DNA from: an uncultured candidatus Porisulfidus sp.
Lineage (GTDB): Bacteria; Pseudomonadota; Gammaproteobacteria; Poriferisulfidales; Oxydemutatoraceae
Reading direction: 5' to 3'
DNA: 64,000 nucleotides
Assembly: GCA_965215125.1 (NCBI GenBank)
Contig: OZ244052.1
Coordinates: 832,713-896,712 of the forward strand
How positions within the stretch are numbered: the first letter of the stretch is position 1; each line of letters starts with the position of its first letter. Both the position numbers and the translations under genes were made by a program. Of the stretch, positions 7,807 to 64,000 are shown one piece after another. The notes beneath the pieces are model-generated. The model had not been told where the DNA came from. It worked only from the letters and a program-made list of their open reading frames with translations, and did no database searches.

Positions 7807-9170
7807 ATTGTGTAAGTTCTAATTAAGATAAACTAGGTGGCAACACCAAACTAATAAAGGAGAACTTATGAAAGATATAAAAAGCATCGGGAAAGAATTA
7901 TCCCGTCATGTAAAGACCCAACAAGAGATGACCGATATCATCGGTCAGTTGATTAAGTCAATGATGGAAGGCATACTCAATGCGGAGCTGGACGACCATC
8001 TCGGCTATGAGAAAAACGACAAAGCATCCAAGCGTAGAAAGAATACCCGCAACGGGCATAGTGCCAAGACCTTAAAGACCAATTATGGGGATATAACGAT
8101 ACAGACACCGCGAGATCGGGAGGCGTCGTTTGAACCGATGATTGTGCCGAAAGGGAAAACCCGTTTAGACGGATTTGAGGATACGATATTGGCACTCTAT
8201 GCGCAAGGGATGACGGTGCGACAGATACAAGAGTCGATTAAAGAGTTGTATCATGGTGCGGAGATTTCTACTGCGGTTATCTCGAATGTCACCGATGCGG
8301 TGATAGACGAGGTGCGGACTTGGCAGAGCCGAGTGTTAGAGTGCCTCTATGTGGTGATGTATCTGGATTGCATCGTCGTCAAAGTGCGAGAGCAAGGCCG
8401 TATCATTAACAAGTCGATCTATGTTGCACTGGGCATAAAGCGCAGTGGACGCAAGGAATTACTCGGGTTGTGGATTGCCGAGACCGAAAGTGCTAAGTTC
8501 TGGTTAGCGATATTAACCGAGCTACAAAATCGGGGTGTGAAAGATATCTTGATCTGTTGCATAGATGGTCTGAAGGGTTTCGCAGAGGCGATTGCCAGCG
8601 TCTATCCGCAGGCAAAAATACAACTGTGTCTAGTCCACATGATGAGAAACTCGCTACGCTATGTTGCGACTAAAGATAAGAAAGCAGTCTCGGCAGCGTT
8701 AAAGAAGATATACAATAGTCCTACGGCGCAGGCTGCCGAGCAGGCGTTAGATGAGTTTGCCGATTGCTGGTCGGCAAAATATCCGAGTGTTGAGCGGTCG
8801 TGGCGCAATAACTGGGACAACCTGATTACGTTATTTGATTACCCGCCGGAGATTAGAAAAATTATCTATACAACGAATGCGATAGAAAGTCTCAATAGCG
8901 TGATTAGAAAATCCATCCGCAACCGGAAGATATTCCCGAGCGACCAATCGGCATTGAAAGTAGTTTATTTGGCAATCAAAAAAGCCTCTGCTCGCTGGAC
9001 GCTGCCGATACGAAATTGGATACCGGCGATGAACCGATTAGCTATTGAATACGAAGGTAGATTTGATATTGAGGAAAACGAAGTTACACAAAATAGTTAA
9101 CAGGCTCCCCGTTTTGGTCCCATTCCTTTTTTAAACAACGAAGATAAGCTAGTCTGATACATTCTTGAAA
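7805..9170 (+). mobile_element. IS256-family insertion sequence (boundaries approximate, terminal inverted repeats not identified)
   Basis: Transposase ORF 7868..9100 with a strong RBS (AAAGGAGAACTTATG); IS256 elements usually extend about 60-100 bp beyond each end of the ORF; I could not see convincing terminal IRs by eye. Confidence 0.45.
7868..9100 (+). CDS. IS256-family (mutator-type) transposase
   Basis: 410 aa; the N-terminal region LDDHLGYEKNDKASKRRKNTRNGHSAKTLKTNYGDITIQTPRDREASFEPMIVPKGKTRLDGFEDTILALYAQGMTVRQIQ is typical of IS256 transposases; DDE region present with the conserved C-terminal W...IE. Confidence 0.9.
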   Translation: MKDIKSIGKELSRHVKTQQEMTDIIGQLIKSMMEGILNAELDDHLGYEKNDKASKRRKNTRNGHSAKTLKTNYGDITIQTPRDREASFEPMIVPKGKTRLDGFEDTILALYAQGMTVRQIQESIKELYHGAEISTAVISNVTDAVIDEVRTWQSRVLECLYVVMYLDCIVVKVREQGRIINKSIYVALGIKRSGRKELLGLWIAETESAKFWLAILTELQNRGVKDILICCIDGLKGFAEAIASVYPQAKIQLCLVHMMRNSLRYVATKDKKAVSAALKKIYNSPTAQAAEQALDEFADCWSAKYPSVERSWRNNWDNLITLFDYPPEIRKIIYTTNAIESLNSVIRKSIRNRKIFPSDQSALKVVYLAIKKASARWTLPIRNWIPAMNRLAIEYEGRFDIEENEVTQNS

Positions 9171-10091: not shown

Positions 10092-11111
10092 ATGCATTCC
10101 GTAGCGATCATAGGCGGTACCGGCTACACAGGGTACGAATTGATGCGTCTTTTGGTGCGTCATCCGCATATTAAACTCAGTCAAGTTGTATCTCGTAGCA
10201 AGGCGGGTTGCGCCATAGCAGAAGTATTTCCTAAAATGAAGGGACATACCGATTTGTGCTATACGCAAAGTTTTGCCCCCGACCTCGGTGCCGATTTAGT
10301 ATTTTTCGCAACACCCAACGGAACGGCAATGAAGCAAGCCGAAGCGTTGCTTGATTCGGGAATACGTATCGTGGATTTGGCAGCGGACTTCAGATTGAGC
10401 GAGGCAGACGAATGGAAGCATTGGTACGGAGAGGATCACACCTGCCCGCATTTATTGGAGAAGGCAGTCTACGGTCTAAGCGAAATGAATCGTAACCCTA
10501 TTGCCGATGCGACTTTGGTGGCTAACCCGGGCTGTTATCCGACTTCGGTGATACTCGGCTTAAAGCCTTTGATAGAAGCAGGCTATGCCGATATTTCATG
10601 TTTGATAGTCGATTCAAAATCGGGTGTAAGCGGGGCAGGTCGGCAAGCGAGTGTGGAATTGCTATTCGGAGAGTGTAGCGAAAACTTTAGAGCCTACAAA
10701 GCCTCCGGCCATAGGCATTGGCCGGAAATCAACCAACAATTATGCCGGATTGCCGGTGTCGAAGTCGGATTCGGTTTTACGCCCCACTTGCTACCGATTT
10801 TTCGCGGTCTGCAATCGAGCTTGTATATTAAAACGGCTGCCGAGCTATCGGAACTTCAGTACTGCTTAGAGCAGGCTTATGCAGATGAACCTTTCGTACA
10901 GGTCATGCCGCCCGATAGTCATCCACAAACCCGAGATGTGAGCGGCACCAATGTATGTTTGCTTGCGGTGCATAAACCGCAATACGGTGATATTGCAGTC
11001 GTGTTTTCGGTAATCGATAATCTGATCAAAGGGGCTGCCGGTCAAGCGGTGCAGAATATGAATTTGATGTTCGGCATAGATGAAACGGCAGGGCTTGTTG
11101 ATTTATACTAA
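10092..11111 (+). CDS. argC: N-acetyl-gamma-glutamyl-phosphate reductase
   Basis: 339 aa; VAIIGGTGYTGYELMRLL NAD(P)-binding start, NPGCYPT active-site cysteine region, length typical of ArgC. Confidence 0.9.
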   Translation: MHSVAIIGGTGYTGYELMRLLVRHPHIKLSQVVSRSKAGCAIAEVFPKMKGHTDLCYTQSFAPDLGADLVFFATPNGTAMKQAEALLDSGIRIVDLAADFRLSEADEWKHWYGEDHTCPHLLEKAVYGLSEMNRNPIADATLVANPGCYPTSVILGLKPLIEAGYADISCLIVDSKSGVSGAGRQASVELLFGECSENFRAYKASGHRHWPEINQQLCRIAGVEVGFGFTPHLLPIFRGLQSSLYIKTAAELSELQYCLEQAYADEPFVQVMPPDSHPQTRDVSGTNVCLLAVHKPQYGDIAVVFSVIDNLIKGAAGQAVQNMNLMFGIDETAGLVDLY

Positions 11112-11138
11112 AAGTCTATATCATTCAAAGAGGAATAT

Positions 11139-13412
11139 GTGAAATACCGAACATACGCCAAGAGATCAAAATCTACCGCAAACATTTTGGGACACGACTC
11201 GATGTATCTGCGCAAAGGAAGTGGTTTATTGCTTATCTTCATAGGCTTATATTTTCTGCTCTCAATGTTGAGTTATCAAGCGGACGACCCGTCGTGGGCA
11301 AATAATATCAGCATGGACGAGACGCAAAACTTGGGAGGAATCGTCGGTGCATGGGTTGCCTATACTTTTTATTTTCTTTTCGGGGCACCGTCGCTCGTGC
11401 TGTTGCCGCTGGCTATTTTTACAAGTGCCCGCCGTTTGTTCAATCCTAATTACACACAGCTCTCTATATGGAATAGGCACCTAATTATTTGGTTGGCTGC
11501 GTTGCTGGCGATAATTGCTTGTTGTGGATTGGCAACCTTGCATTTTGTCACACCTGATCTTCCTACCAGTAGCGGTGGTCGTCTGGGTGAATTGGTTATA
11601 CAGAGTTTTTATCCGCTATTCGGTATGATAGGTTCCACCTTGTTATTGCTGGGTTTGATCGTAGGCAGCCTGACGGTGATGATGGATATCGCATGGCTGA
11701 AGATAGCGGATGCGGTCGGTTTGGCGTTGTTCTCGACTGCACAATGGTTCGTGGATACCAAGCAGTGGATACAAAGCCGTCTATTGGTTCACGAACGTTC
11801 CGTAGAACGCGCCCGAGCAGTCTCAAAGCGTAAGAAAAAACTCGTCAACAGAACCCCTCCCAAAATAGGAAATATGCTCAACAGTCTGTCGCCCGGCACG
11901 AAAAGTACGAAAAAACAACAAATCGCATTGCCGATCGAAGGAAAAGAGGAATTACCTTCGTTGAGTCTACTAGATCGAGAAACAGCATCGGTCTCGAGTT
12001 ACTCTAAAGACGAACTGGAAAAACTTGCCAGACAACTGGAAATTAAATTAGAAGATTTCGGCATCGTAGCTCAGGTGACCGAAGCACAACCCGGCCCTGT
12101 GGTCACCCGTTTTGAAGTGATGCCGTCTCCCGGCACCAAAGCGAGCAGTATTAGCAACCTCCAAAAAGACCTTGCGCGATCCTTATTGCTCCCCAGCATC
12201 CGAGTAGTGGAAGTGATCCCGGGGAAATCGTCGGTCGGCATAGAAGTGCCGAATAGAACGCGATCGGTTGTCAAATTCGGTGAACTCTTGCAGTCCGAAG
12301 AATACGAAAAACAGCACTCGCCGTTAACGCTTGCATTAGGCAAGGATGTTGCAGGTCAAGCGATATTCATAGATTTAGAAAAGTTACCCCACCTGCTGGT
12401 TGCCGGCACCACCGGTTCGGGCAAATCGGTTGCAGTACATTCTATGCTGGCGAGCTTGTTATTTCGTAATCTCCCCTCGCAAGTTCGTTTGATTTTGGTA
12501 GACCCTAAAATGCTTGAACTTAAATCGTATGAGAATATCCCTCATTTATTGTTACCTCTGATTACCGATATGCAGGAAGCTGCCGGTGCCTTACGGTGGG
12601 CAGTTGCCGAAATGGAACGGCGCTATCGCTTGATGGCGGCACTCAATGTACGCAACATCACATCGTATAACAATAAAGTTACTAAGGCTAAAAAAAGAAG
12701 GGAACCGATTGCCGACCCGCTCTTTGAGAGTGAAGACGAAGCCGCAATAGCTCCAACACTCGACGAGATACCGTATATCGTCATCGTCATCGATGAATTC
12801 GCCGATATGATTATGATGGTGGGCAAGAAAGTAGAAGAACTGATTATCCGACTGGCTCAAAAAGCACGTGCTGCGGGAATACATTTGGTACTGGCTACAC
12901 AAAGACCTTCGGTTGATATTATTACCGGTCTGGTCAAAGCGAATGTGCCGGCGAGAATCGCATTTCAAGTTTCCTCAAAGGTCGATTCGCGCACCATATT
13001 GGATCAAAACGGTGCCGAACAGCTGCTGGGGCAAGGCGATATGCTGTGTCTGATGCCGAGCTACGCAACGCCGATGCGTGTACACGGTGCTTTCATATCG
13101 GATAGCGAAGTGCAAGCGGTCACCGACTTTTTACGCAAACAAGGCGAGCCGTTTTATATAGAAAACCTGAATACATCGGACAACGGGGAGGTCGGTTTTA
13201 ATGCTGCAGAAACCGAAGACCCGCTCTATAAGCAAGCGGTGGAAATCGTAACCGAATCGGGTAAAGCGTCTATCTCTTATCTACAACGCCGCCTCAAAAT
13301 AGGTTATAACCGAGCGGCACGCATGATAGAAGAAATGGAAAGTGCCAAGATAGTTTCCAGCATACAATCGAGCGGATCCCGCCAAGTATTGGTCTCGTCG
13401 TCTAGAAAGTGA
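11139..13412 (+). CDS. ftsK: DNA translocase FtsK
   Basis: 757 aa; N-terminal membrane segments, a linker, a Walker A (VAGTTGSGKSV) motor domain and a C-terminal gamma winged-helix (SISYLQRRLKIGYNRAARMIEEME); followed by lolA as in many proteobacteria. Confidence 0.9.
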   Translation: MKYRTYAKRSKSTANILGHDSMYLRKGSGLLLIFIGLYFLLSMLSYQADDPSWANNISMDETQNLGGIVGAWVAYTFYFLFGAPSLVLLPLAIFTSARRLFNPNYTQLSIWNRHLIIWLAALLAIIACCGLATLHFVTPDLPTSSGGRLGELVIQSFYPLFGMIGSTLLLLGLIVGSLTVMMDIAWLKIADAVGLALFSTAQWFVDTKQWIQSRLLVHERSVERARAVSKRKKKLVNRTPPKIGNMLNSLSPGTKSTKKQQIALPIEGKEELPSLSLLDRETASVSSYSKDELEKLARQLEIKLEDFGIVAQVTEAQPGPVVTRFEVMPSPGTKASSISNLQKDLARSLLLPSIRVVEVIPGKSSVGIEVPNRTRSVVKFGELLQSEEYEKQHSPLTLALGKDVAGQAIFIDLEKLPHLLVAGTTGSGKSVAVHSMLASLLFRNLPSQVRLILVDPKMLELKSYENIPHLLLPLITDMQEAAGALRWAVAEMERRYRLMAALNVRNITSYNNKVTKAKKRREPIADPLFESEDEAAIAPTLDEIPYIVIVIDEFADMIMMVGKKVEELIIRLAQKARAAGIHLVLATQRPSVDIITGLVKANVPARIAFQVSSKVDSRTILDQNGAEQLLGQGDMLCLMPSYATPMRVHGAFISDSEVQAVTDFLRKQGEPFYIENLNTSDNGEVGFNAAETEDPLYKQAVEIVTESGKASISYLQRRLKIGYNRAARMIEEMESAKIVSSIQSSGSRQVLVSSSRK

Positions 13413-14044
13413 TGAAGCGATATATTAAGGCAGTTTGCCTTGTTTGTTTGTTTGCTATCTTTACACCCGCACATACCGATACATTGACTGCTCTGGATGT
13501 TTTCTTCAAATCCGAGACTTTTCGAGCCAATTTCGATCAAGAGGTTTATAGCTCGGAGGGACAAAAAATCGACGAGTCCAAAGGATTTACCTTGTTTCAT
13601 AGACCCGGCCGCTTTCGTTGGGAATACGTCTCCCCGGAACCTTATTTGATTTTAACCGACGGCTTAAGTCTGCTTATCTACGATGTGCCGTTAAAACAAG
13701 CGTATTTACGCCCTACACTCAATACTCTTGGAAAAGCACCACTGATGCTCCTTTTGGATAAGCGTACTGCGGTTGACGATTTTTATATAGACATCATAGC
13801 CGACAACGCCTACCCGAACATAGAGGGGGTGAGTTGGCTGAGGTTGGTACCAAAAGTAGACGACACCGACTTTGTTTTTTTTGATATAGGGTTTGAGGGA
13901 GAGCGTCTATCGCATTTAATACTCTACGACCACTTCGATCAATACACTCAGATACATTTTTACGATATACAAACAAACCCGGAATTTAAGAAAGACTATT
14001 TCCGTATCGAGCTACCGGAAGATGTAGATGTGATTCGGAATTGA
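13409..14044 (+). CDS. lolA: outer-membrane lipoprotein carrier protein LolA
   Basis: 211 aa; signal peptide and a LolA-like beta-barrel sequence; conserved ftsK-lolA adjacency; 4-bp overlap with ftsK. Confidence 0.8.
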   Translation: MMKRYIKAVCLVCLFAIFTPAHTDTLTALDVFFKSETFRANFDQEVYSSEGQKIDESKGFTLFHRPGRFRWEYVSPEPYLILTDGLSLLIYDVPLKQAYLRPTLNTLGKAPLMLLLDKRTAVDDFYIDIIADNAYPNIEGVSWLRLVPKVDDTDFVFFDIGFEGERLSHLILYDHFDQYTQIHFYDIQTNPEFKKDYFRIELPEDVDVIRN

Positions 14045-15045: not shown

Positions 15046-15510
15046 TTATCGCATCTTCTGGAGCCTGCGCTTTTCCATATCCCAACTGCGGTTGCGTTCA
15101 GCCATGCGTTTATCGTATTTGTGTTTTCCTTTGCCGATCCCCAGTTGGAGCTTGGCGCGGTTATTTTTCCAGTGCAGATCCAGCGGTATTAGGGAGTAAC
15201 CCTTGCGCGTGAGTTTTCCTTGCAAGCTGCGTAGTTCACGGCGATTGAGTAATAACTTGCGGGTGCGGGTAGGGTTTATCCGCGGATCACTTACGCTCGG
15301 CAACGGACTGATATGCGCATTGATTAACCACGCCTCGTTATCTTTCAGTATCGCATAGCTTTCTTTTAATTGTATGCGATTGGCTCTTAGACTTTTAACT
15401 TCCCAACCGTTGAGTACGATACCCGCTTCTATGCGCTCGTCTATGAAGTAGTCGCGCATCGCTTTAGGATTATGTGCCGTTTTGTTTCTTTTTATTTTGT
15501 TAGTTTTCAT
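15046..15510 (-). CDS. smpB: SsrA-binding protein SmpB
   Basis: 154 aa; NRKARHDYFI-like start (KAMRDYFIDERIEAGIVLNGWEVKSLR) and a basic C-terminal tail; conserved smpB / ratA-rnfH-bamE neighbourhood. Confidence 0.9.
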   Translation of the reverse strand: MKTNKIKRNKTAHNPKAMRDYFIDERIEAGIVLNGWEVKSLRANRIQLKESYAILKDNEAWLINAHISPLPSVSDPRINPTRTRKLLLNRRELRSLQGKLTRKGYSLIPLDLHWKNNRAKLQLGIGKGKHKYDKRMAERNRSWDMEKRRLQKMR

Positions 15511-15541
15511 AGTTCTACTATAATAAGGTTTTACTTTTTAT

Positions 15542-16927
15542 TTGCGGGGGGGCATATTCTATACAATGAAAGAGAACGATAACAATTATACACACAGCCA
15601 GTGGAGTTCTCGCTTCGTATTCATTATGGCAGCAATTGGTTTTGCGGTTGGTCTGGGTAATATATGGCGTTTCCCCTATATCGTCGGAGAGTATGGCGGT
15701 GGTGCTTTCGTATTACTCTATATATTCTTTATAGTACTGATGGGCTTGCCGGCCATGATGAGCGAGATCATGCTAGGTCGTCTGGGCAAGCACAACACCA
15801 TAGATACTTTTACACATTTTCGCTCCGAATACGGAACTAGTTCATTCTGGAAAATAATCGGTTTGATGGGGATTATAACGGGTATCTTGATTCTATCCTT
15901 CTATAGCGTAATTGCCGGGTGGGTCCTGTCTTATATACCCTATTCCGTGCAAGGTGTTTTTGAAAATCAATCGGTCGAAGGTATTGCGAGTATTTTCGAT
16001 GAACTCACCGCAAACCCCGGTCGTATGATTTTGTGGCACACCTTATTTATGATAATCACTGCGATCGTATTTATGCGCAACATCAATGCCGGCGTAGGGA
16101 GAGTAGTCTCTTATTTTATGCCGTTGCTACTACTACTGATAATCGCAATGATGATCTACAGTGCTTATGAAGCCGATATGGGACAAGCCATACACTTCCT
16201 GTTTAGATTCAGTTGGGATGACTTCAGTACCGAGATGGTCATAGTTGCTTTAGGGCAAGCATTTTTTTCATTGGGTATCGGCATGGGTGCGGCAATGATA
16301 TATGGTTCTTATTTACCGAACCGAGTACCGTTATTAAGCACAACCGCTATCATCGCCACAGCCGACACTCTGGTCGCTATTTTTGCCTCCTTGATGATTT
16401 TTCCTATTTTGTTTTCCTTTAATCTAGAGCCGGCAGCAGGGCCAGGCTTAATTTTTAAGACTCTTCCTATTGCTTTCTCACAAATGCCCGGAGGTGATTT
16501 AGTAGGCTTCACATTTTTCATATTACTTTTTATCGCTGCCTGGACCTCGGCTTTCTCGTTGTTGGAACCTTTCGTTGCGTGGTTGGTAGAATATACTCGC
16601 TGGACACGCGGGCAAGCTGCCGCAATCGCCGCCGGTTTGATTTGGTTGTTGGGCTTCGCAACTATCTTTTCTTTTAATATATGGCAAGAAGTCAAACTAG
16701 GAGGAATGACACTGTTTGACTTGGTGGATAAATTCACCGCCAATATCACGCTACCCTTGGGCGGGTTGTTGATTACTCTGTTTGCCGGTTGGTTTTTGCC
16801 TGCGATGGCAAGCAAAAAACAACTTAATTTAGGTTCCGAGTTGCATTATCGGATATGGCGATGGAGCGTACGCTATTTCTGCCCGATCTTGATATTGGCC
16901 ATTATGATTGCCAGTTGGATAGCTTAA
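15542..16927 (+). CDS. sodium-dependent transporter, neurotransmitter:sodium symporter (NSS/SNF) family
   Basis: 461 aa; the hallmark WSSRFVFIMAAIGFAVGLGNIWRFPY motif of NSS transporters; 11-12 predicted TM segments. Confidence 0.85.
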   Translation: MRGGIFYTMKENDNNYTHSQWSSRFVFIMAAIGFAVGLGNIWRFPYIVGEYGGGAFVLLYIFFIVLMGLPAMMSEIMLGRLGKHNTIDTFTHFRSEYGTSSFWKIIGLMGIITGILILSFYSVIAGWVLSYIPYSVQGVFENQSVEGIASIFDELTANPGRMILWHTLFMIITAIVFMRNINAGVGRVVSYFMPLLLLLIIAMMIYSAYEADMGQAIHFLFRFSWDDFSTEMVIVALGQAFFSLGIGMGAAMIYGSYLPNRVPLLSTTAIIATADTLVAIFASLMIFPILFSFNLEPAAGPGLIFKTLPIAFSQMPGGDLVGFTFFILLFIAAWTSAFSLLEPFVAWLVEYTRWTRGQAAAIAAGLIWLLGFATIFSFNIWQEVKLGGMTLFDLVDKFTANITLPLGGLLITLFAGWFLPAMASKKQLNLGSELHYRIWRWSVRYFCPILILAIMIASWIA

Positions 16928-48213: not shown

Positions 48214-49589
48214 AATTAATTCGTAATTTTTTTTATGCTCTTATTGTCTGCAACTCCATAACTGGGAATTATGTATTTAACCTGACAAGGTTTTTAGCCT
48301 TGCCATGTTCAACCATTTTTTGACGCTTCACAGACCAACAAATGTTGCAATCTCGACACCCGATAGCGGCACTCCCAGCCGCCATAATGTTTAATGCAGC
48401 ATTGATGTCCGCATTGCCCTCGTGTCCGCAGTACTGACACTTAAATATCGCTTGTGTTTTGCGGTTAGCTTTATTTACGCTTCCACATTTATTACAGGTT
48501 TGACTCGTGTAGTGTGCCGGCACTTTCTCCACATGGGCTTTGTAGCTTAAGCATTGCTCTAGCCTACTCCAGCCACTCTTTAGTATCTCCCTGTTCAAAC
48601 CTGACTTCGCCTTCACATTCTTACTCGGGCTGTCTATCGTCCCCTTCGCCGACTTCGTCATGCCTGCTGTATTCAATCCTTCCATATAAACACTATCGTA
48701 TTTATCTGCTATTAGCTTGTTGGTTTGATGACTCCAATTCGCTCTCACAAATCGCTCCGCTTGATATGCGCTCTGTAGTCTATGCTTCGCTAGCTTTCGT
48801 CTATTGCTCCCCTTGACCCGTCTTGCCACCATTCGTTGATAGTGCCTACGCCTTGCTTCCTTAAGCTTTAGGTCGGGTAGGTGATATATCGTTCCGTCCG
48901 ATAATGCTATCTGTCCCACATTCCTATCCAAACCCACTTCCTTTAGCATGTGCGGTTTGTCCGCTATCTCTACTTCATAAGTGATATAAGCATACCAGTT
49001 TCCGTACTCATGCTTCACTTGACCCGATACAAACTTCTCACCTTTATACCTATCCCCACCGGCAAACTTCATCCAACCAACCTTCTGTATGTAAATATGC
49101 TCGCCCGCTATTCGTGCTGTTTGCTTATCTATTGAAAATGAAGGATTATATGTATATCTGCTGTGAAACTTCGGCAATCCGCCATTACCAGTAAAGAAGT
49201 TTCTATAGCTAGTTTCTATTGGTTTTAATGACATCTTCACTATATAAGCGGAATATCCTTGCAGCCACTTGTCGCAATGCTTCCGCAAAGTCGTAAATTG
49301 CTTGCCTATTGTGAAATAACTAAACCGGCTCTCCCCGTAATACTCGTACTCGTCTCTCAACTTCTCTACAAAGTGATTCCAAACATATCGGCATGCGCCT
49401 GCAGTCCCGTGTAGCTTCTGGTGTTTCTCTTTTGTCGCCGGGTAAAGGCGATAGCGGATTGTTCTGTGGATTTTCATTGGTTTATTTTAACATTTTCTTG
49501 TCAAGTTATATGCATAATTCCGACTCAAGTAAATAGAATATCACCACTTGCTTCAAATGAACCGGCACTATACCCGTGCAGATACGACG
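48214..49589 (-). mobile_element. IS1341-like (tnpA-less IS605-family) element, approximate limits
   Basis: The tnpB ORF with about 55 bp to the yaaA start on one side and about 110 bp before the next repeat-family copy on the other; the ends are not defined by visible hairpins, so the limits are approximate. Confidence 0.4.
48269..49477 (-). CDS. tnpB: RNA-guided endonuclease TnpB (IS200/IS605 family OrfB, IS1341-like solo)
   Basis: 402 aa; N-terminal OrfB_IS605 region; RuvC-I GLDRNVG; RuvC-II YMEGLN; zinc finger CNKCGSVNKANRKTQAIFKCQYCGHEG; RuvC-III NADINAALNI; all three catalytic acidic residues present; no tnpA nearby. Confidence 0.85.
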   Translation of the reverse strand: MKIHRTIRYRLYPATKEKHQKLHGTAGACRYVWNHFVEKLRDEYEYYGESRFSYFTIGKQFTTLRKHCDKWLQGYSAYIVKMSLKPIETSYRNFFTGNGGLPKFHSRYTYNPSFSIDKQTARIAGEHIYIQKVGWMKFAGGDRYKGEKFVSGQVKHEYGNWYAYITYEVEIADKPHMLKEVGLDRNVGQIALSDGTIYHLPDLKLKEARRRHYQRMVARRVKGSNRRKLAKHRLQSAYQAERFVRANWSHQTNKLIADKYDSVYMEGLNTAGMTKSAKGTIDSPSKNVKAKSGLNREILKSGWSRLEQCLSYKAHVEKVPAHYTSQTCNKCGSVNKANRKTQAIFKCQYCGHEGNADINAALNIMAAGSAAIGCRDCNICWSVKRQKMVEHGKAKNLVRLNT

Positions 49590-56405: not shown

Positions 56406-56458
56406 GTTCGCCTCTGCGCAAGCGATGTTTCTTATGCTTACTTAACGCAAGTCTTGCC

Positions 56459-56980
56459 CTAAAAGGGCAGACCGTGTCCCATACCGCCGCCGATCATGCA
56501 CATCAGCATCGGTATAGAAAGCAAAGTGTTGGTACGAGATGCCATCAGTGCCTTCTTCTTGGCTGTGGCTTTCTCTTCGTCGCTGGCTTGTATGCCGCCG
56601 ATGCCCAATACCTTTTTCTGGTTCGGCCAAATAATGCCCCATACATTGAGCAACATAATAGTACCGAGCCATGCGCCTACGCCGATAACCTCATAGGGCG
56701 CACTAAGCAAAAATACTTTCGTGGTGCTTCCGCCACCGTAGACAATTTCTATTGCGGCAGCACCGGTAAGCCAGGTAAGCAAGGCACCGTAACGAAACCA
56801 TGCAAGTGCTCGCGGCGCAACATATTTGTTGATTGCAGCCGGGCCGGGACCGTCTTTGTCGTTCATCGCTTCGGCAACCGCCGGTACTTGTACGAAATTA
56901 AAATAATAGAGCAAACCTATCCAAATAATTCCGACGAATACGTGTAGCCACACGATTAAAGAACTCATGTTCATATCCAT
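56459..56980 (-). CDS. hypothetical integral membrane protein (possibly HemJ/CopD-like)
   Basis: 173 aa, 4-5 TM helices; the N-terminus LIVWLHVFVGIIWIGLLYYFNF is loosely reminiscent of HemJ-type proteins; weak. Confidence 0.3.
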   Translation of the reverse strand: MDMNMSSLIVWLHVFVGIIWIGLLYYFNFVQVPAVAEAMNDKDGPGPAAINKYVAPRALAWFRYGALLTWLTGAAAIEIVYGGGSTTKVFLLSAPYEVIGVGAWLGTIMLLNVWGIIWPNQKKVLGIGGIQASDEEKATAKKKALMASRTNTLLSIPMLMCMIGGGMGHGLPF

Positions 56981-57278
56981 AATGATATCTCCTTATGTCC
57001 GAGACACTAAAGAATTAAACTAATTATCACCGCCAAAATAAAGCCGGCGATAATTGTTCCGGTGATAGAGTCAAGTGGGTTCATAACACCTCCTCTTTGT
57101 TAAGTGGGTTTAGCCGACGATTATATCACAACACCGTAAATTTAATATTAAGAATGAAATTGTACAAAATGATGCCAATCTACTTTTGAGAAACTAAATT
57201 CTTTATGTCAATTTCAGATATTGAGTTTATTTTTGCTTTACAATATCTAATTATTGTTTTACAGAGGAGGAATTAAAT

Positions 57279-57917
57279 ATGTACCCCAAAAAAATTTTTA
57301 TTGTGCTCATTTTGGTCACGATGTTTGCCACAGGTGTCGCAGAGGCTCGGTTCGGTTCGGCACCCGAAGGTTGGCCGTGTGTACAAGGCTATGTTGCCGA
57401 AGTCTCGGCAGGTGCATTTTGGACCGGTGAATTGCCCGCTAGCGAAGCCGTAGCAAACAACGAAGCATTGATGAGATTGGTGGAGGAAGCGAGTGATAGG
57501 ACTATTTCTTATGAACAAAGCCTCGATAAGATAAAGGCTTTCTTAGATCAACTTGAAGGAAGTAGCCCCGAACATAAGCAGGAACAAGCCGCCTTACTAA
57601 TAGTCGCATTGACCGACTCAATCAACGGCAAACGTGTAAAAGTATTAAAAGGAATAGACCGCTTCAGTAAACGCCAACAAATGATGATTACCCGCATAGA
57701 AGACCAAGATAACAAGATAAGGGCTATTAAAAACGGCGAAACTTCGGAGAACGGTTCGGCACTTGCAGATTTAGAGGATCGTCAAATGTGGGACATTCGT
57801 GTTTTTGAGGAGCGCGAGTTCCAGAAAAATTATCTTTGTGAACAAGCGGTTTTACTCGAACAAAGATTTTTCTTTTTAGGGCGCGATATTGTTGCTTGGC
57901 TTGAAGACAGCGAGTAA
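57279..57917 (+). CDS. secreted hypothetical protein
   Basis: 212 aa; RBS GGAGGAATTAAATATG; N-terminal signal peptide (KKIFIVLILVTMFATGVAEA); charged coiled-coil-rich mature part. Confidence 0.4.
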   Translation: MYPKKIFIVLILVTMFATGVAEARFGSAPEGWPCVQGYVAEVSAGAFWTGELPASEAVANNEALMRLVEEASDRTISYEQSLDKIKAFLDQLEGSSPEHKQEQAALLIVALTDSINGKRVKVLKGIDRFSKRQQMMITRIEDQDNKIRAIKNGETSENGSALADLEDRQMWDIRVFEEREFQKNYLCEQAVLLEQRFFFLGRDIVAWLEDSE

Positions 57918-57959
57918 TTTCCGGCGTATAAAATTTATAAGCGTGTGATACCAACAGGT

Positions 57960-58448
57960 TTATTGATTGGATAGCTTGTTGGGTGGTGGGTCATCGTTTG
58001 TAACCGGAGGGCACTTTATGCTTTCAAAGCCTACTAAAGCGATATTAAATGTCGGGGTTCTTATCGGCACACGATTATCGTAAAGCCAGTTATATTGTAT
58101 GTTGTAGGCTTGCACTTCTCTTGCCTTCCAAGTCAGGCAGTCGTTTTCCAGAGACGGTATGTTGTGTTTATACTGCACATAATGAACTAATTCGTGTAGC
58201 AAGATACCACGCGCTTGCATGTTGTTTTGAACATCCAGCGTATTTTTAAGATATACAGTCTCGTCTTCGTTGGAAAACCAGCCTAGTACATTTCCGCACG
58301 ACTCACCGTCGCAGGCCTTGGCTTCAATTTGCGTTTGCGGTACAAACCGAACTTCCGGAGCGGCGATTTGCGAATCGGTGATATACATGGCAGTATTGAT
58401 ATATACCATCAATGCACTGACGATTGCTTGTAGTGAAGTTAACTCCAT
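57960..58448 (-). CDS. small secreted HExxH zinc-metallopeptidase-like protein
   Basis: 162 aa; hydrophobic N-terminus; LHELVHYVQ contains HExxH. Confidence 0.4.
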   Translation of the reverse strand: MELTSLQAIVSALMVYINTAMYITDSQIAAPEVRFVPQTQIEAKACDGESCGNVLGWFSNEDETVYLKNTLDVQNNMQARGILLHELVHYVQYKHNIPSLENDCLTWKAREVQAYNIQYNWLYDNRVPIRTPTFNIALVGFESIKCPPVTNDDPPPNKLSNQ

Positions 58449-58461
58449 TATTCCGATTCCT

Positions 58462-59271
58462 TTATGCAGCGATTACAGGCCATTGCGATTCGTATATTTT
58501 TTTTCTCGAATCTATCGCTTTGGCAAATAATACGTCATCGCTTTCGGTAGCTAGATAAGAAAAATCAAAGCTTGGATTCTCGCTGAAAGAGATATCACCT
58601 TCAACTGCAAACACGACTTCGTCAAGGCGATTTTTAATCTCCACCTTTTCAATATAGTGCGGAGGAATAAAAAGAAGTGTTTGCTGGTCTTTTTGTAGAC
58701 CCGAGTAATTAGGATGTGTGATGACAAGATGAAGATCGCGCATTTTTGGATTGTTGGTCGCCTCGTCTTGTATCAGTTGCATTTTCCCCATAGTCAGTTT
58801 AGACATAGGGTCAACTTCCATCGGTGGCGCAGAACACCCGCCGGAAGCTTTAACAAAAGTCTTATTCATATAAAGTTTGCCGTCGTTGGTTTCCGAGACT
58901 ACGCGGACATTACTATAAGTATTGACACGGATACGAGTTGATATATCTGCCGTACCGTTTTTCGGCGATAAAGAAAATTTGGCTGCGACCGGAGACGGGT
59001 TCTCGTCGACTATCAAATGGTGGTTTTTAATAAATTTGTCTGTTTCTTGCGGAAAGCGCGAGGCAATCGTTATCGGCACATCACCGCCGTTAGGAGGACG
59101 CTCGGGTGCTATAACCGAAATCCATTGACTTCCGTCATCCACAGGACGGTCCTGAAACAGAAAATTGCGAATATCCGTCCATGCTTGTTCTTGTTCTGCC
59201 CAGACATTTCCGAACTTAGCGGCGATACCCGTTGCAGCACTATACATTAAAAATTTGCGTCTGCTAATCAT
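58462..59271 (-). CDS. Tat-exported SoxY-SoxZ-like fusion protein (putative covalent sulfur carrier)
   Basis: 269 aa; twin-arginine signal SRRKFLMYSAATGIAA; mid-protein GGC motif (KTFVKASGGCSAPP) like the SoxY C-terminal GGCGG swinging arm, followed by a second beta-rich domain of about 110 aa. Confidence 0.35.
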   Translation of the reverse strand: MISRRKFLMYSAATGIAAKFGNVWAEQEQAWTDIRNFLFQDRPVDDGSQWISVIAPERPPNGGDVPITIASRFPQETDKFIKNHHLIVDENPSPVAAKFSLSPKNGTADISTRIRVNTYSNVRVVSETNDGKLYMNKTFVKASGGCSAPPMEVDPMSKLTMGKMQLIQDEATNNPKMRDLHLVITHPNYSGLQKDQQTLLFIPPHYIEKVEIKNRLDEVVFAVEGDISFSENPSFDFSYLATESDDVLFAKAIDSRKKIYESQWPVIAA

Positions 59272-59333
59272 GTCGTTCTCCCTAATTATGTAAAGTGAAT
59301 AAAAGCCTTTTCAAGTATACCACAAATAAATAA

Positions 59334-59470
59334 AACCGCCGATTGAGCCAGTAGGTCAATCGGCGTAACTTTTTACAAAACCTGAATATTGTGTCCATTA
59401 GGAATGTTACATATATCAAAATCAATCGGCGCGACCTCGTGCAGAACCTTAACATGGGTGTGTAGGGCCG
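59334..59470. repeat. repeat-family copy (two module a copies)
   Basis: aaaccgccgattgagccagtaggtcaatcggcgtaactttttacaaaacc ... caatcggcgcgacctcgtgcagaaccttaacatgggtgtgtagggc. Confidence 0.75.
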
Positions 59471-59620
59471 GATATATCAAACAAAGCTATCGCATTCTAA
59501 TAGTTTGCTACAATAACTACTCGGACCCCTCTTTTGAGTCTCGCATCCGGTAGACTTAAATAATTAATAGGGGTTTCGTGAAAATATATTTACTTTATCT
59601 TGATTAGAGGAGGAAAGATC

Positions 59621-60031
59621 ATGTTGAATAAATACTATAAAGTTTTTATAACCCTAGTTTGTGCTTCTTTGTTATCGGTTGCCTGCATGCATTCCGACAA
59701 CGAGACTATCCCGAATTTGGCCGGGGAGTGGAAAGGAGTCAATCACACTATATCCGACGCCAAAGGATATTCAGAATGGGAGAAAACAGTGACGATTAGC
59801 GAGCAGCGGGATCGTCGGTTCAAAGGCTACTTTGAATATAGCGAAGGCACTATAAACTTCTCGGGTGTGATTTTCGGTGATAACACATCTTTTGCGTGGA
59901 CATCCGAAAATAGCCAAGGCTACAATGTAGGAAGAGTACTCGGAGATAATAAAATCAGTGCGTGTTATGTAGAGTCCGGAGAGCAAGCGACCGCAGGCTG
60001 TGCCGAAATGACTCGCGCCTCCATGCCTTAA
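59621..60031 (+). CDS. hypothetical lipoprotein
   Basis: Lipoprotein signal MLNKYYKVFITLVCASLLSVAC (lipobox LSVAC); RBS GGAGGAAAG; start chosen at the second Met of track ORF 59600..60031. Confidence 0.4.
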   Translation: MLNKYYKVFITLVCASLLSVACMHSDNETIPNLAGEWKGVNHTISDAKGYSEWEKTVTISEQRDRRFKGYFEYSEGTINFSGVIFGDNTSFAWTSENSQGYNVGRVLGDNKISACYVESGEQATAGCAEMTRASMP

Positions 60032-60180: not shown

Positions 60181-61170
60181 ATGAAGCGTAGAACATTTTT
60201 GAGTGTCGGGGCGAGCCTAATAATGTTGTCTATGATCGACCTAAAGCGTGGTTTTGGTTCGCCTCGACCCAAAGTCGGCATGGTCTACGATCCGTTATTT
60301 TCCGAAGATTGGCGCGTACACGACCATCCGGAATCGCCTATGCGCTACCGGTCAATAATCGACGGTTTCGAGCAAAACGACATATTGAGGCAAACTTCAA
60401 AAATAGAATTATTAGACGAAATTGAGCCTTCATTGCTGACGGTACATAATAAAAAACATATTGATACGATTAGAAAATTTTATGTTTATGCGCACGATGT
60501 TGCGTCGGCAGCGGTTGGTGCCGGATTGGCTGCTGTCGACGCAGTTTGTAGCGGTACGCACAATAGCGTTTTTTGTGCCGTACGCCCGCCGGGTCATCAC
60601 GCCTTAAATACCGGCCGGGAGGAAGGCTTTTGTTTTTATAACAATGTTGCCGTCGCCGCGCGTTATGCACAAAACAAATATAAGCGTAAGAAAGTCTTAA
60701 TCGTAGACTGGGATTACCATCACGGCAACGGTACGGAGGCAGTATTTTACGAGGATCCGTCGGTGCTTTTTTTCTCCACACACGATTATCGCGCTTATCC
60801 GGGAACCGGAAATCCGACCAGAGTCGGTGCCGATAAAGGCAAAGGATACAATATCAATGTGCATTTGGATTGTGGCGCAAACGATGAGGATATTATCAAT
60901 GCATTCAACGACATATTGATTCCTGCTGCGCACCGCTTCAAACCCGACTTGATATTGATATCGGCAGGATTTGATAGTCGCAAAGACGATTTATTGGGTT
61001 GCTTCGACATTAGCGACGAGGGTTTTGCTCGGTTGACGCATATCGTGCGTAATCTTGCAGACGAATACTGCGACGGATGTATGGTATCATTACTGGAAGG
61101 GGGGTATAGTTTATCGGGACTGGCAAATGCCACGGTCGCACACCTGAAAGCGATGCTCGATATGTCCTGA
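60181..61170 (+). CDS. histone deacetylase-family amidohydrolase (AcuC/Aph-like)
   Basis: 329 aa; the HDAC signature VDWDYHHGNGTE, FSTHD, and ISAGFD. Confidence 0.8.
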   Translation: MKRRTFLSVGASLIMLSMIDLKRGFGSPRPKVGMVYDPLFSEDWRVHDHPESPMRYRSIIDGFEQNDILRQTSKIELLDEIEPSLLTVHNKKHIDTIRKFYVYAHDVASAAVGAGLAAVDAVCSGTHNSVFCAVRPPGHHALNTGREEGFCFYNNVAVAARYAQNKYKRKKVLIVDWDYHHGNGTEAVFYEDPSVLFFSTHDYRAYPGTGNPTRVGADKGKGYNINVHLDCGANDEDIINAFNDILIPAAHRFKPDLILISAGFDSRKDDLLGCFDISDEGFARLTHIVRNLADEYCDGCMVSLLEGGYSLSGLANATVAHLKAMLDMS

Positions 61171-61271: not shown

Positions 61272-62969
61272 ATGAGTAGTTTTTTTTCAAAGGAGCGGAT
61301 TGTAGCCGAGGAAGGGTTTAATCGCTGGCGCGTGCCACCGGCATCGATTGCGATACACCTTTGCATCGGTTCGGTCTATGCGTGGAGTATTTACAATCCT
61401 GCATTGACGAAAGTCGTCGGTGTCGTCGCCAGTTCCGCCGACGATTGGACCTTAACCGAAGTCGTCTGGATTTTCACCGTTGCTATTCTGGTTTTGGGGC
61501 TTGCTGCGGCGTTTGCCGGCAAATGGCTCGAGGAAGTCGGGCCGCGCACGGTCGGTATTGTCGCCGCCTTTTGCTGGGGCGGCGGTTATGTAGTAGGCAG
61601 TCTGGGCATCTATCTGAATCAAGTATGGTTACTTTATCTCGGCTATGGCGTGATCGGGGGATGCGGTTTAGGTTTGGGTTATGTATCGCCGGTTAGTACT
61701 TTGATCCGCTGGTTTCCCGACCGGCGCGGTATGGCAACCGGAATGGCAATTATGGGTTTCGGCGGCGGCGCAATGCTGGGAACGCCCTTGAAAGAATATT
61801 TCCTTCAAAAATTTTACCGTGCACCCGAATATTTAGGCTCAATCGATAGTTTGGATTTGATTACCGAAGCCGGTAGACGTTTCGTGCAGATAGGCGGCGA
61901 ATTAAAAGAAGTGGTGGTGGTCGGTGCAAACGAAGTTTCCGGCATGATCGTTCCGGGAGATCCCGGTGTCTATCTACTCGGCACAGGTTCGGTCGGTGCA
62001 TGGCAGACATTTTTATTTATCGGTTTAATTTATTTTATTGTGATGCTGATCGCAGCGTTGAGCTATCGTATTCCGCGCGAGGGTTGGACTCCCGAAGGTT
62101 GGACACCACCGAGTAAATCCGTTTCCGATAAGAAAATGATAACGCAAGGCAATGTGGACATAGACCAGGCATTGAAGACACCACAATTCTATCAACTATG
62201 GATCGTCTTATGTTTCAATGTCACCGCCGGTATCGGTGTTATCGGCGTTGCCAAGACGATGATTACCGACATCTTCGGTTCCGCTTTGCCGGGCATAGTA
62301 GACGGTGCTTTTGCCGCAACCTATGTCTTGATGATCAGCGTGTTTAATATGATCGGCAGAGTATTGTGGGCAGGTTCGTCCGATTTTATCGGACGCAAGA
62401 ATACCTATTGGATATTTTTTGTCGGAGGTATATTACTTTATTTGTCTATCCCGTTTGCCGCACAACAAGTGAGTGTTCATCCTACGGTATTTTGGTTGGT
62501 ATTTTTCTATGCGGCAACGATGATTATATTCACCTTCTACGGCGGTGGTTTCGCAACCATTCCCGCCTACTTGGCGGATATTTTCGGCACCCATCATGTC
62601 GGTGGCATCCACGGTAGACTACTAACCTCATGGAGCACCGCCGGCGTATTAGGGCCGCTTGCTATTACCACTTTGCGGCAAAACTCACTCAGCAATTCAA
62701 TTCACGAGTTGGCTGCCAAAGTGGATCCGGCAAAATTTGCCGAAACCTTCGGGGCAGGAATTGATAAACTGGACTTATTGATTGAAAAAAAGACCGTAAC
62801 GCTCGCCAAGTTGCTCGAAATCTCGCCGCCGGGAACCGTGGACCCCACACCCAGCCTATATAATACGACGATGTATTTGATGGCGTTTCTGCTACTTCTA
62901 GCATTGATATCAAATGCGCTTATGAAGCCGGTGCATCCCAAGCATCACATCAATGACGGGAAAACATAG
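61272..62969 (+). CDS. MFS transporter, oxalate:formate antiporter (OFA) family
   Basis: 565 aa; the OFA-family N-terminus RWRVPPASIAIHLCIGSVYAWSIYNPAL; 12 TM helices with a long central loop. Confidence 0.75.
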   Translation: MSSFFSKERIVAEEGFNRWRVPPASIAIHLCIGSVYAWSIYNPALTKVVGVVASSADDWTLTEVVWIFTVAILVLGLAAAFAGKWLEEVGPRTVGIVAAFCWGGGYVVGSLGIYLNQVWLLYLGYGVIGGCGLGLGYVSPVSTLIRWFPDRRGMATGMAIMGFGGGAMLGTPLKEYFLQKFYRAPEYLGSIDSLDLITEAGRRFVQIGGELKEVVVVGANEVSGMIVPGDPGVYLLGTGSVGAWQTFLFIGLIYFIVMLIAALSYRIPREGWTPEGWTPPSKSVSDKKMITQGNVDIDQALKTPQFYQLWIVLCFNVTAGIGVIGVAKTMITDIFGSALPGIVDGAFAATYVLMISVFNMIGRVLWAGSSDFIGRKNTYWIFFVGGILLYLSIPFAAQQVSVHPTVFWLVFFYAATMIIFTFYGGGFATIPAYLADIFGTHHVGGIHGRLLTSWSTAGVLGPLAITTLRQNSLSNSIHELAAKVDPAKFAETFGAGIDKLDLLIEKKTVTLAKLLEISPPGTVDPTPSLYNTTMYLMAFLLLLALISNALMKPVHPKHHINDGKT

Positions 62970-63029: not shown

Positions 63030-63542
63030 ATGATGTTTATCAATAGCAAAGAACAACTTAAAAATATCTGCCGTTGCTTGATAGCGAACCGCGGATTACT
63101 CATCGCAATATTTGCAGCCGGCGTACTGAGTTCACCGGCGGTTTCCGATGACCTTGCAAAAGGCGAAAAAACTTTTATCAAGTGCAAAGTATGTCACGCG
63201 GTGGAGAAGGATGTAAGCAAAATAGGTCCTAGCTTGCATGGTGTCTTCGGACGCAAAGCGGGAAGTTTGGAAAGTTTTCCGAACTATTCCGATGCAATCA
63301 AATCGACCGATATAGTTTGGGGAGATGAGACCATACGCGAATTCGTAAAGGCACCGCGCACTTATATCGCCGGTACAAAAATGATTTTTATAGGTATCAA
63401 AGACGATAAGGTGATAGATGACTTATTGGCTTATCTAAAATCGGTCACAGGTGCCGAAACCGGTTCCGAGACTTCCGATACCGAGACCTCGGATGCCGGC
63501 TCCGCCGCCGAGATGTCTCCGACCGAAGCGACTGTAGAATAG
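63030..63542 (+). CDS. class I c-type cytochrome (c2/c550-like) with acidic Ser/Thr-rich C-terminal tail
   Basis: 170 aa; signal peptide; CKVCH heme site; GPSLHGVFGRKAG; Met ligand GTKMIF; C-terminal ETGSETSDTETSDAGSAAE extension. Confidence 0.8.
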   Translation: MMFINSKEQLKNICRCLIANRGLLIAIFAAGVLSSPAVSDDLAKGEKTFIKCKVCHAVEKDVSKIGPSLHGVFGRKAGSLESFPNYSDAIKSTDIVWGDETIREFVKAPRTYIAGTKMIFIGIKDDKVIDDLLAYLKSVTGAETGSETSDTETSDAGSAAEMSPTEATVE

Positions 63543-63561: not shown

Positions 63562-63895
63562 AATTCCCCTCCTGTGGAGGGGTGGCAGGCGCAATAGAAC
63601 CGCCGTTTGTTGCAAATAATCGTTCCTTGTTGCAGTAGCACAAGGAACATCACCTTATACAAGATTCAGCTATTTATGGCTGTTAGAAATAATACGAATA
63701 GCAAAGACAAACGGCGTGACATTGTGCAGAACCATAGCATATATACAAAATGTATGCCTTTTCATGGGGTGGTTGCTAAGGGTCTGTACAAGGTGCAGTG
63801 TCGGTACATTCCCCTCCTTCGGAGGGGTGGCAGGCGTAGCCTGACGGGGTGGTTGTGTGGTATCTGTACCAGTTAATTCCCTCCCTGATTTTTTC
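63562..63895. repeat. composite repeat block (module c, hairpin, module a-like, module b-inverted, module c)
   Basis: attcccctcctgtggaggggtggcaggcgcaatagaaccgccgtttgttgcaaataatcgttccttgttgcagtagcacaaggaa...aaacggcgtgacattgtgcagaacc...aaatgtatgccttttcatggggtggttgc...attcccctccttcggaggggtggcaggcgtagcctgacggggtggtt. Confidence 0.8.
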
Positions 63896-64000
63896 ATTAA
63901 CAACCCTCCATGTATTCGTTTTTAAGAGACACATAAATCTCTGCCGAATAAACAAGAAACTCTCTGTCCATTGCGCTGAGTTTACGGATTTTCTTTATCG

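Follow-up and report, generated by a model that had tools for sequence, protein, structure and literature searches.

In the ped cluster of Pseudomonas putida, a SoxYZ-like carrier (PP_2677), a SoxH-like protein (PP_2678), and a rhodanese (PP_2666) are conserved with alcohol dehydrogenases (ADHs) that depend on lanthanides and pyrroloquinoline quinone (Ln/PQQ-ADHs), and the roles proposed for the three, disulfide or cofactor maturation or the shielding of PQQ from sulfur nucleophiles, are still hypotheses (PMC12997753). SoxYZ fusion clades adjoin PQQ-ADH and xoxF genes in lucinid, shipworm, and mussel symbionts and were judged to serve carbon, not sulfur, metabolism (PMC11237559), and the Sox(YZ) fusion and SoxH of Hyphomicrobium were assigned to a PQQ alcohol-oxidation cluster, not to sulfur oxidation (PMC11582611). 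As related in PMC12997753, the PedA1A2BC-type ATP-binding cassette (ABC) transporter imports lanthanides in P. putida (Wehrmann 2019). This type of operon resembles the transporter operon lutABEF of Methylorubrum extorquens, in which lutG, the gene of an exported protein, comes after lutF, which encodes the permease, and loss of lutG slows growth on methanol with La (PMC7391723). Here, we analyzed a 64-kb stretch of DNA (hereafter the window) from an uncultured candidatus Porisulfidus sp. (contig OZ244052.1, positions 832,713 to 896,712), which encodes a 269-amino-acid (aa) SoxY–SoxZ fusion carrier within a block of four genes, the other three being those of a small lipoprotein, a mini-zincin with an HExxH motif, and a secreted 212-aa protein.

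By its profile matches, the 269-aa protein is a member of the already named SoxYZ-like carrier family tied to PQQ/lanthanide alcohol dehydrogenase systems. It scores 228.1 bits on the quinoprotein-associated family model TIGR04557 (cut-off 140), with residues 31–260 covering profile positions 1–225 of 226, and fails both the true SoxY model TIGR04488 (72.7 bits, cut-off 125) and the true SoxZ model TIGR04490 (45.4 bits, cut-off 76). Since the family has been named and discussed before (PMC12997753, PMC11237559, PMC11582611), this is not a new kind of protein. An earlier note on this DNA, made without database searches, had proposed a SoxY–SoxZ-like fusion acting as a non-Sox carrier of the quinoprotein-dehydrogenase type; the fusion is borne out by strong Pfam matches to SoxY (residues 38–146, 112 bits, E = 1.8e-32) and SoxZ (residues 174–263, 63 bits, E = 1.5e-17), and the carrier type agrees with the curated scores. 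A twin-arginine motif and the mid-chain GGC motif that the note described are both present. The N-terminus, MISRRKFLMYSAATGIAAKFGNVWA (MISRRKFL...), combines an SRRKFL motif with a hydrophobic stretch and VWA, and RRxFL is kept in the family consensus; generic models of twin-arginine translocation (Tat) signals narrowly miss their thresholds (TIGR01409, 16.2 bits with the cut-off at 16.7; Pfam TAT_signal, E = 0.03). Homologues numbered 2006 at E < 1e-5, and in an alignment of the best 120 with the query, G144, G145, and C146 of the motif VKASGGCSAP are invariant (121/121); on the conservation of this cysteine the earlier note had let its reading stand or fall. The SoxZ-type HPxxSGxQxD motif is invariant in the same 121 sequences.

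Compared with the canonical SoxYZ of Paracoccus and Chlorobium (2ox5, 2oxg, 2nnc, 4uwq), the carrier shares both domain folds by profile, holds an HPxxSG motif in its SoxZ part, and matches the sulfur-binding cysteine of SoxY with Cys146, which aligns with that residue in the crystallised proteins 2nnc and 4uwq. The Tat-dependent export of canonical SoxYZ may also apply to the carrier, going by its leader. Canonical SoxYZ, however, consists of two polypeptides and the carrier of one, and the free C-terminal GGCGG arm of SoxY is replaced by a mid-chain GGCSAPP, with Cys146 lying in the linker that joins the SoxY and SoxZ domains. Canonical systems also have soxAXB as neighbors, whereas no sox gene, soxAXB included, was found in the 64-kb window. 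A canonical Sox role for the carrier was rejected, since its scores miss the curated cut-offs and soxAXB is missing from the window.

The gene context was compared across 86 loci, comprising 80 genome loci with 10-kb flanks and several metagenome loci. Neighbor families were mapped back onto the loci with hidden Markov models (HMMs), the seeds of which were checked against NCBIfam, and these family HMMs were used instead of single-linkage clustering of stop-to-stop open reading frames (ORFs) on account of shadow ORFs and merged genes in high-GC genomes. In nine gamma-clade loci (WIN, which is the window's own locus, L001–L007, and L085; carrier identity 56–92%), the genes follow the fixed order lipoprotein (-), carrier (+), HExxH (+), and 212-aa (-), and this order stays while the flanks differ. 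A cytochrome c gene and the ABC operon lie directly upstream of the block in L001–L003, L006, and L007; the ABC genes are still present in L085, 10 kb off; pqqCDE lies 10 kb from the block in L002 and L003; and genes of the tetrahydromethanopterin (H4MPT) pathway adjoin it in L001. From the fixed order in nine loci and the ABC, pqqCDE, and H4MPT genes nearby, the four-gene block is a conserved unit inside a one-carbon (C1)/PQQ/lanthanide gene neighborhood, in a gammaproteobacterial clade of the sponge-symbiont type. The closest carriers are encoded on OZ244779.1 (L004, labelled 'Candidatus Oxydemutatoraceae'; 92% identity) and in a 'Ca. Porisulfidus' genome (88%), both of them chromosomes of metagenome-assembled genomes.

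All five ORFs that the earlier note had grouped in a cluster are present, base-exact, at the coordinates it gave. Four of them are kept as the block, but the fifth, the gene of a 173-aa membrane protein, lies outside the conserved unit; its membership was rejected, as synteny with the block is limited to the two closest relatives, L004 and L005. The note had also called the carrier stand-alone, which is overstated, as in relatives the ABC transporter of the PQQ system, pqqCDE, or H4MPT genes lie no more than 10 kb away. A cytochrome c gene that lies outside the coordinates of the note (Table 1) belongs to the conserved set; its product matches CycA with 101 bits, below the model cut-off. The 143-aa protein is confirmed to carry a lipobox (LLSVAC, PROSITE-type), in keeping with its description as a lipoprotein, and has a conserved cysteine pair (ISACY...ATAGC), with no family match in Pfam or NCBIfam. 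Its homologues are confined to the nine gamma-clade loci, always directly upstream of the carrier gene and divergent from it, and the counterparts in L002 and L007 have a signal anchor in place of the lipobox. The GC content of the four-gene block is 0.40–0.43 against 0.45–0.50 in the flanking genes (57000–60000), which may reflect a different origin or just the composition of genes for secreted proteins.

Across the 86 loci, a SoxH-like metallo-beta-lactamase (MBL) gene (TIGR04559) lies directly 5' of the carrier gene in 64, a PQQ dehydrogenase gene (TIGR03075) is present in 50 (33 of the 51 loci with full flanks), genes of the MoxJ-like protein MoxJ_2 (TIGR03871) and of a CXXCW rhodanese (TIGR03865) occur in 41 each, and the cytochrome c family occurs in 30, all gamma-clade loci among them. 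The ABC operon has the gene order TIGR03863, TIGR03866, TIGR03864, and TIGR03861 (PedA1A2BC type), and the canonical arrangement of MBL, PQQ dehydrogenase, MoxJ-like protein, rhodanese, cytochrome c, and ABC operon is that of Alpha- and Betaproteobacteria. The 269-aa protein resembles other TIGR04557 carriers in its predicted Tat leader, its SoxY-like domain with the invariant GGC cysteine, and its fused SoxZ-like domain, but their four usual partners, namely the SoxH-like MBL, the CXXCW rhodanese, the MoxJ-like protein, and the PQQ dehydrogenase, are all missing from its locus, and its flanks are instead the HExxH mini-zincin and the small lipoprotein. A SoxH-like zinc metallohydrolase (TIGR04558/TIGR04559) beside the carrier is absent from all gamma-clade loci, including the window. 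Four alphaproteobacterial loci with both MBL and HExxH genes (L008, L022, L023, and L025) have an additional gene between those of the carrier and the HExxH protein; it encodes a small secreted protein with cysteines in the motif ...ADYVFACM... and in the C-terminal ...AEAE[IL]RCF, a candidate unnamed member of the carrier systems.

The unnamed 212-aa family was found in 34 of the 86 loci (30 of the 51 with full flanks). Its gene directly follows an ABC permease or beta-propeller gene in 14 loci, and in L060 the family and PedC share one ORF. Elsewhere, the 212-aa family is the last gene of a PedA1A2BC/LutABEF-type ABC-transporter operon, the position of LutG, the match being one of gene position alone. 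LutG of M. extorquens AM1 (META1p1784) is exported and encoded after the permease gene, in the operon order binding protein, beta-propeller, ATPase, permease, and LutG, and relatives of the 212-aa protein, which like LutG has an export signal, fill the same slot in those 14 loci, whereas in the window the 212-aa gene is detached from the transporter operon and convergent with the HExxH gene. The predicted structure of the 212-aa protein (predicted local distance difference test score [pLDDT] 87) gave only generic coiled-coil fold matches. Both the 212-aa and the cytochrome c families are also found alongside SoxYZ-like genes in Alpha- and Betaproteobacteria that are only distantly related.

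The 162-aa protein is, on its predicted structure, a real zincin: it has the HExxH...ExxA motif, a pLDDT of 89, and zincin fold matches that include Spartan, selecase, and projannalysin. The family comprises 424 cluster representatives at E < 1e-3, and across the 70 homologues used for conservation, H85, E86, H89, Q92, E111, and A114 are invariant, giving the gluzincin signature, with four cysteines nearly invariant. Pfam DUF6647 is matched by 32 of the 70 (E < 0.01); the window protein itself has no DUF6647 match and reaches no Pfam threshold, M76 and DUF6782 being sub-threshold. The HExxH mini-metallopeptidase of the earlier note is thereby upheld as a zincin through HELVH, the invariant gluzincin residues, and the predicted fold, its catalysis being a prediction. 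Identity to the minigluzincins (selecase, projannalysin, proabylysin) and DUF6647/DUF6782 proteins is 15–18%, and the minigluzincins are archaeal and cytosolic, whereas the HExxH protein is bacterial, belongs to a periplasmic-system context, and differs further by an additional helix at the N-terminus and by its four conserved cysteines. With seven codons upstream of the ATG in its ORF and residues 1–20 forming a confident helix of the predicted fold, the protein has no signal peptide; longer homologues (P0168–P0170 and P0182) have N-terminal signal peptides, which points to an extracytoplasmic family.

The HExxH gene starts 13 bp past the carrier stop codon, with its own AGGAA ribosome-binding site, and gaps between the two same-strand genes are 13–63 bp across the gamma clade. 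In this clade, all non-redundant loci (8/8) have HExxH and lack MBL, while in the other 77 loci HExxH occurs in 4 and MBL in 64 (Fisher p = 0.001, uncorrected for phylogeny, the loci not being phylogenetically independent). By position, the HExxH protein can be likened to the SoxH-like MBLs (TIGR04558, TIGR04559; PP_2678), the genes of which encode a zinc hydrolase and adjoin the carrier gene on the same strand. The latter, however, have a metallo-beta-lactamase fold, about 300 aa, a signal peptide, and an upstream gene, and the HExxH protein has a zincin fold and 162 aa, is signal-less, and is encoded downstream.

The 3' end of a gamma-carbonic-anhydrase gene lies at the end of the window, and in L004 (1–5417), next to it come dsrK, dsrM, and four small ORFs of dsrEFHC size. 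From the succession of the gamma-carbonic-anhydrase gene and dsrK/dsrM in OZ244779.1, the source is a genome of the sulfur-oxidizer type, and because the same gene precedes dsrK/dsrM in L004, the genes of sulfur oxidation by reverse dissimilatory sulfite reductase (rDsr) probably start about 1 kb beyond the window end. The earlier note had stated that no sulfur-oxidation genes are nearby, which holds for sox genes within the window and probably does not hold for rDsr genes just past its end, judging from L004.

We favor, with a probability of about 0.55, the interpretation that the carrier is a sulfur-relay protein serving a Ln/PQQ dehydrogenase, with the mini-zincin as its zinc hydrolase and together with the LutG-position protein and cytochrome c. 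The carrier would fold in the cytoplasm before Tat exports it. Once periplasmic, it may hold a small covalent adduct on Cys146 of the flexible linker between its domains. Sulfane sulfur is the likeliest adduct, a persulfide of the kind found in sulfur relays, since the family usually partners with a rhodanese and a SoxH-type hydrolase and its host here oxidizes sulfide. In such a host, sulfur nucleophiles would be able to reach the strained vicinal disulfide and the PQQ of XoxF/PedH-type enzymes. The relay would act for an alcohol or methanol dehydrogenase of the lanthanide/PQQ type, whose gene would lie elsewhere in the genome, and may keep the reactive vicinal disulfide and PQQ of that enzyme clear of sulfur adducts or aid their maturation. 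In most bacteria, the SoxH-like zinc MBL and the CXXCW rhodanese would load and unload the carrier cysteine, and in the gamma clade the carrier arm would probably be served by the mini-zincin, encoded immediately downstream, as zinc hydrolase. The signal-less mini-zincin may enter the periplasm bound to the carrier, like SoxZ, which in the Sox system is itself signal-less and co-exported with SoxY. The 212-aa coiled-coil protein would assist the lanthanide ABC importer as an accessory component in the periplasm, and the cytochrome c would accept electrons from the dehydrogenase. A more specific version, in which the mini-zincin binds the folded carrier, hitch-hikes through Tat, and is a new zinc hydrolase that unloads Cys146 as a non-orthologous replacement of the MBL, with the block tied to lanthanide handling or to the repair of sulfur adducts on XoxF-type enzymes in sulfide-exposed symbionts, appears distinctly unlikely.

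Several observations weigh against a relay for a quinoprotein dehydrogenase. In none of the nine gamma-clade loci do the 10-kb flanks hold a gene of an MBL, rhodanese, MoxJ-like protein, or PQQ dehydrogenase; all four are likewise missing from the 64-kb window, and a dehydrogenase elsewhere in the genome is an assumption. The match of the 212-aa protein to LutG is one of gene position, and in P. putida, RB-TnSeq (random barcode transposon sequencing) and knock-outs under lanthanide-free conditions gave minimal phenotypes (PMC12997753). As for the mini-zincin, a signal peptide is lacking in every SoxYZ-linked locus, the four alphaproteobacterial copies included, and the protein could be cytoplasmic with its four cysteines forming a structural zinc site. 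The joint occurrence of HExxH and MBL in these four loci indicates that replacement is not strict. In Methylophaga (L086) and in L087, distant homologues of the mini-zincin are not adjacent to SoxYZ/PQQ genes, and these two loci ruled out the HExxH family as a constant tracker of such genes.

The lack of a PQQ dehydrogenase within 10 kb in the gamma clade would also suit a periplasmic persulfide carrier that feeds cytoplasmic rDsr independently of any quinoprotein. The SoxY carrier cysteine and fold are conserved, a related genome is labelled 'Ca. Porisulfidus', and in L004, the nearest relative, dsrM and dsrK lie about 5–8 kb from the carrier gene, the window ending in the same gamma-carbonic-anhydrase gene; the nearness of rDsr genes there counts against the relay as well. 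Such a role nevertheless appears quite improbable, as the carrier scores below the cut-offs of the true SoxY/SoxZ models and above that of the quinoprotein-associated family, the window is without soxAXB, and published analyses of fusion clades argue against sulfur oxidation (PMC11237559, PMC11582611). Moreover, the adjacency to dsr genes is not seen in L001–L003, L006, and L007, where PQQ-system ABC, pqq, or H4MPT genes are found instead. It is possible, though rather unlikely, that the HExxH protein works as a genuine peptidase in the cytoplasm or periplasm, which acts on the carrier linker, the lipoprotein, or the dehydrogenase in maturation or quality control and does not unload Cys146. 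Its intact HExxH...ExxA, its fold resembling those of the proteases Spartan, selecase, and projannalysin, and the many family members standing alone in unrelated contexts are consistent with a peptidase, and the loci with both HExxH and MBL suggest that the two are not simply interchangeable. The tight same-strand coupling to the carrier kept across the clade and the complete inverse pattern with MBL in the gamma clade, in contrast, argue against it. Finally, the alternating gene orientations, the 173-aa gene not conserved with the rest, and the histone deacetylase (HDAC)-family and major facilitator superfamily (MFS) genes between the block and the cytochrome c gene could be taken for a chance juxtaposition of unrelated secreted hypothetical proteins that form no functional unit. 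This is extremely improbable and largely refuted by synteny, because the order and orientation of the four genes are kept in nine loci that are not near-clonal and that vary in carrier identity and flanks, and because the 212-aa and cytochrome c families recur with SoxYZ-like genes in distant proteobacteria.

Table 1. Features of the window and of compared loci discussed in the text (REP, repetitive extragenic palindrome; MITE, miniature inverted-repeat transposable element; IS, insertion sequence).
Locus	Feature	Position	Strand	Length (aa)	Remarks
Window	IS256/Mutator-type transposase gene	7868–9100	+		amid housekeeping genes
Window	hairpin repeat (family D3), full copies	18535, 21500, 25144, 28313, 31739, 59337			
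Window	hairpin repeat (family D3), half copies	35386, 59422			
Window	IS605-family TnpB gene	48269–49477	-		Cas12f1-like TNB domain; amid housekeeping genes
Window	integral membrane protein	56459–56980	-	173	Pfam Urate_ox_N PF06181, 68 bits, partial domain
Window	secreted 212-aa protein	57279–57917	+	212	clear classical signal peptide; helical, coiled-coil hairpin
Window	HExxH mini-zincin	57960–58448	-	162	HELVH motif; peripheral to Pfam DUF6647
Window	SoxY–SoxZ fusion carrier	58462–59271	-	269	twin-arginine motif; Pfam SoxY + SoxZ, TIGR04557
Window	divergent promoter region, carrier/lipoprotein genes	59272–59599			holds dispersed REP/MITE-like element
Window	promoter-like hexamers	59314–59285	-		not above chance
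Window	hairpin of the repeat	59337–59365			tail to ~59400
Window	partial second copy of the repeat	59403–59470			half-site 59422
Window	small predicted membrane-anchored periplasmic protein (lipoprotein)	59600–60031	+	143	lipobox LLSVAC
Window	HDAC-family ORF	60181–61170	+		Pfam Hist_deacetyl, 283 bits
Window	lactate/oxalate-formate-type MFS transporter gene	61272–62969			
Window	class I cytochrome c	63030–63542	+		CKVCH, c550/c2-like; best NCBIfam match cytochrome c-550 CycA
Window	second repeat family	~63563–63591, 63802–63869			
Window	gamma-carbonic-anhydrase gene, 3' end	63907–64000	-		
L008	small secreted Cys protein	10875–11237	-		
L022	small secreted Cys protein	6050–6475	-		
L023	small secreted Cys protein	7340–7720	-		
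L025	small secreted Cys protein	10792–11235	-		
L085	second repeat family, tandem arrays	12472–13657, 15448–16538			15 copies and ~13.6 copies; beside DDE transposase gene

In four loci (WIN, L004, L005, and L085), the genes of the lipoprotein and the cytochrome c are kept apart by one HDAC-family gene together with one or two of the MFS type. The HDAC-family protein of the window starts with MKRRTFLSVGASL, a twin-arginine-like leader that is kept in L004, L005, L085, and, as VKRRTFLGIATSL, in L001, which suggests a Tat-exported periplasmic deacetylase or amidohydrolase, unusual for the family; its gene is always paired with that of a lactate/oxalate-formate-type MFS transporter. The remaining genes of the window are housekeeping genes (topA, polA, asd, ftsK, lolA, smpB, recN, dapF, xerC, fpg, gyrB, accBC, tgt, dnaX, and the signal recognition particle [SRP] RNA gene), among which two transposon-related genes are found (Table 1).

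The repeat that the earlier note had placed at 59334 as a boundary of the cluster is real but is not a boundary, for its place is within the cluster, where the carrier and lipoprotein genes share a divergent promoter region. It consists of the hairpin CGCCGATTGA-N9-TCAATCGGCG, after which comes a conserved tail (about 40 nt; gtgcagaaccttaacatgggtgtgtagggc); copies run in either direction, and the element has a REP/MITE-like look. At least six full copies are present in the window, always intergenic, and 21 matches were found at no more than one mismatch against 5.4 expected (0/100 shuffles). The copy in front of the carrier gene was also considered as a locus-specific operator and rejected, being a dispersed element. 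A second repeat family, with a 79-nt unit and the hairpin CCCCTCCTGTGGAGGGG, is single-copy near the window end and forms tandem arrays in L085.

SoxYZ-like carriers, SoxH-like hydrolases, and a rhodanese accompany lanthanide/PQQ alcohol dehydrogenases in many Proteobacteria. What is new here is modest, namely a reduced and rearranged locus type in sponge-symbiont-like Gammaproteobacteria, a mini-zincin as partner of the carrier, and the 212-aa family as a frequent member, which accompanies the carrier nearly as often as the dehydrogenase does (30 versus 33 of 51 full-flank loci). The gain is comparative and hypothesis-generating and does not amount to a new kind of system. The gamma clade offers a natural reduced version, in which the carrier keeps the mini-zincin, the LutG-position protein, the lipoprotein, and the cytochrome c, and in relatives also the lanthanide ABC transporter, and this reduced locus narrows which partners of the carrier are indispensable.

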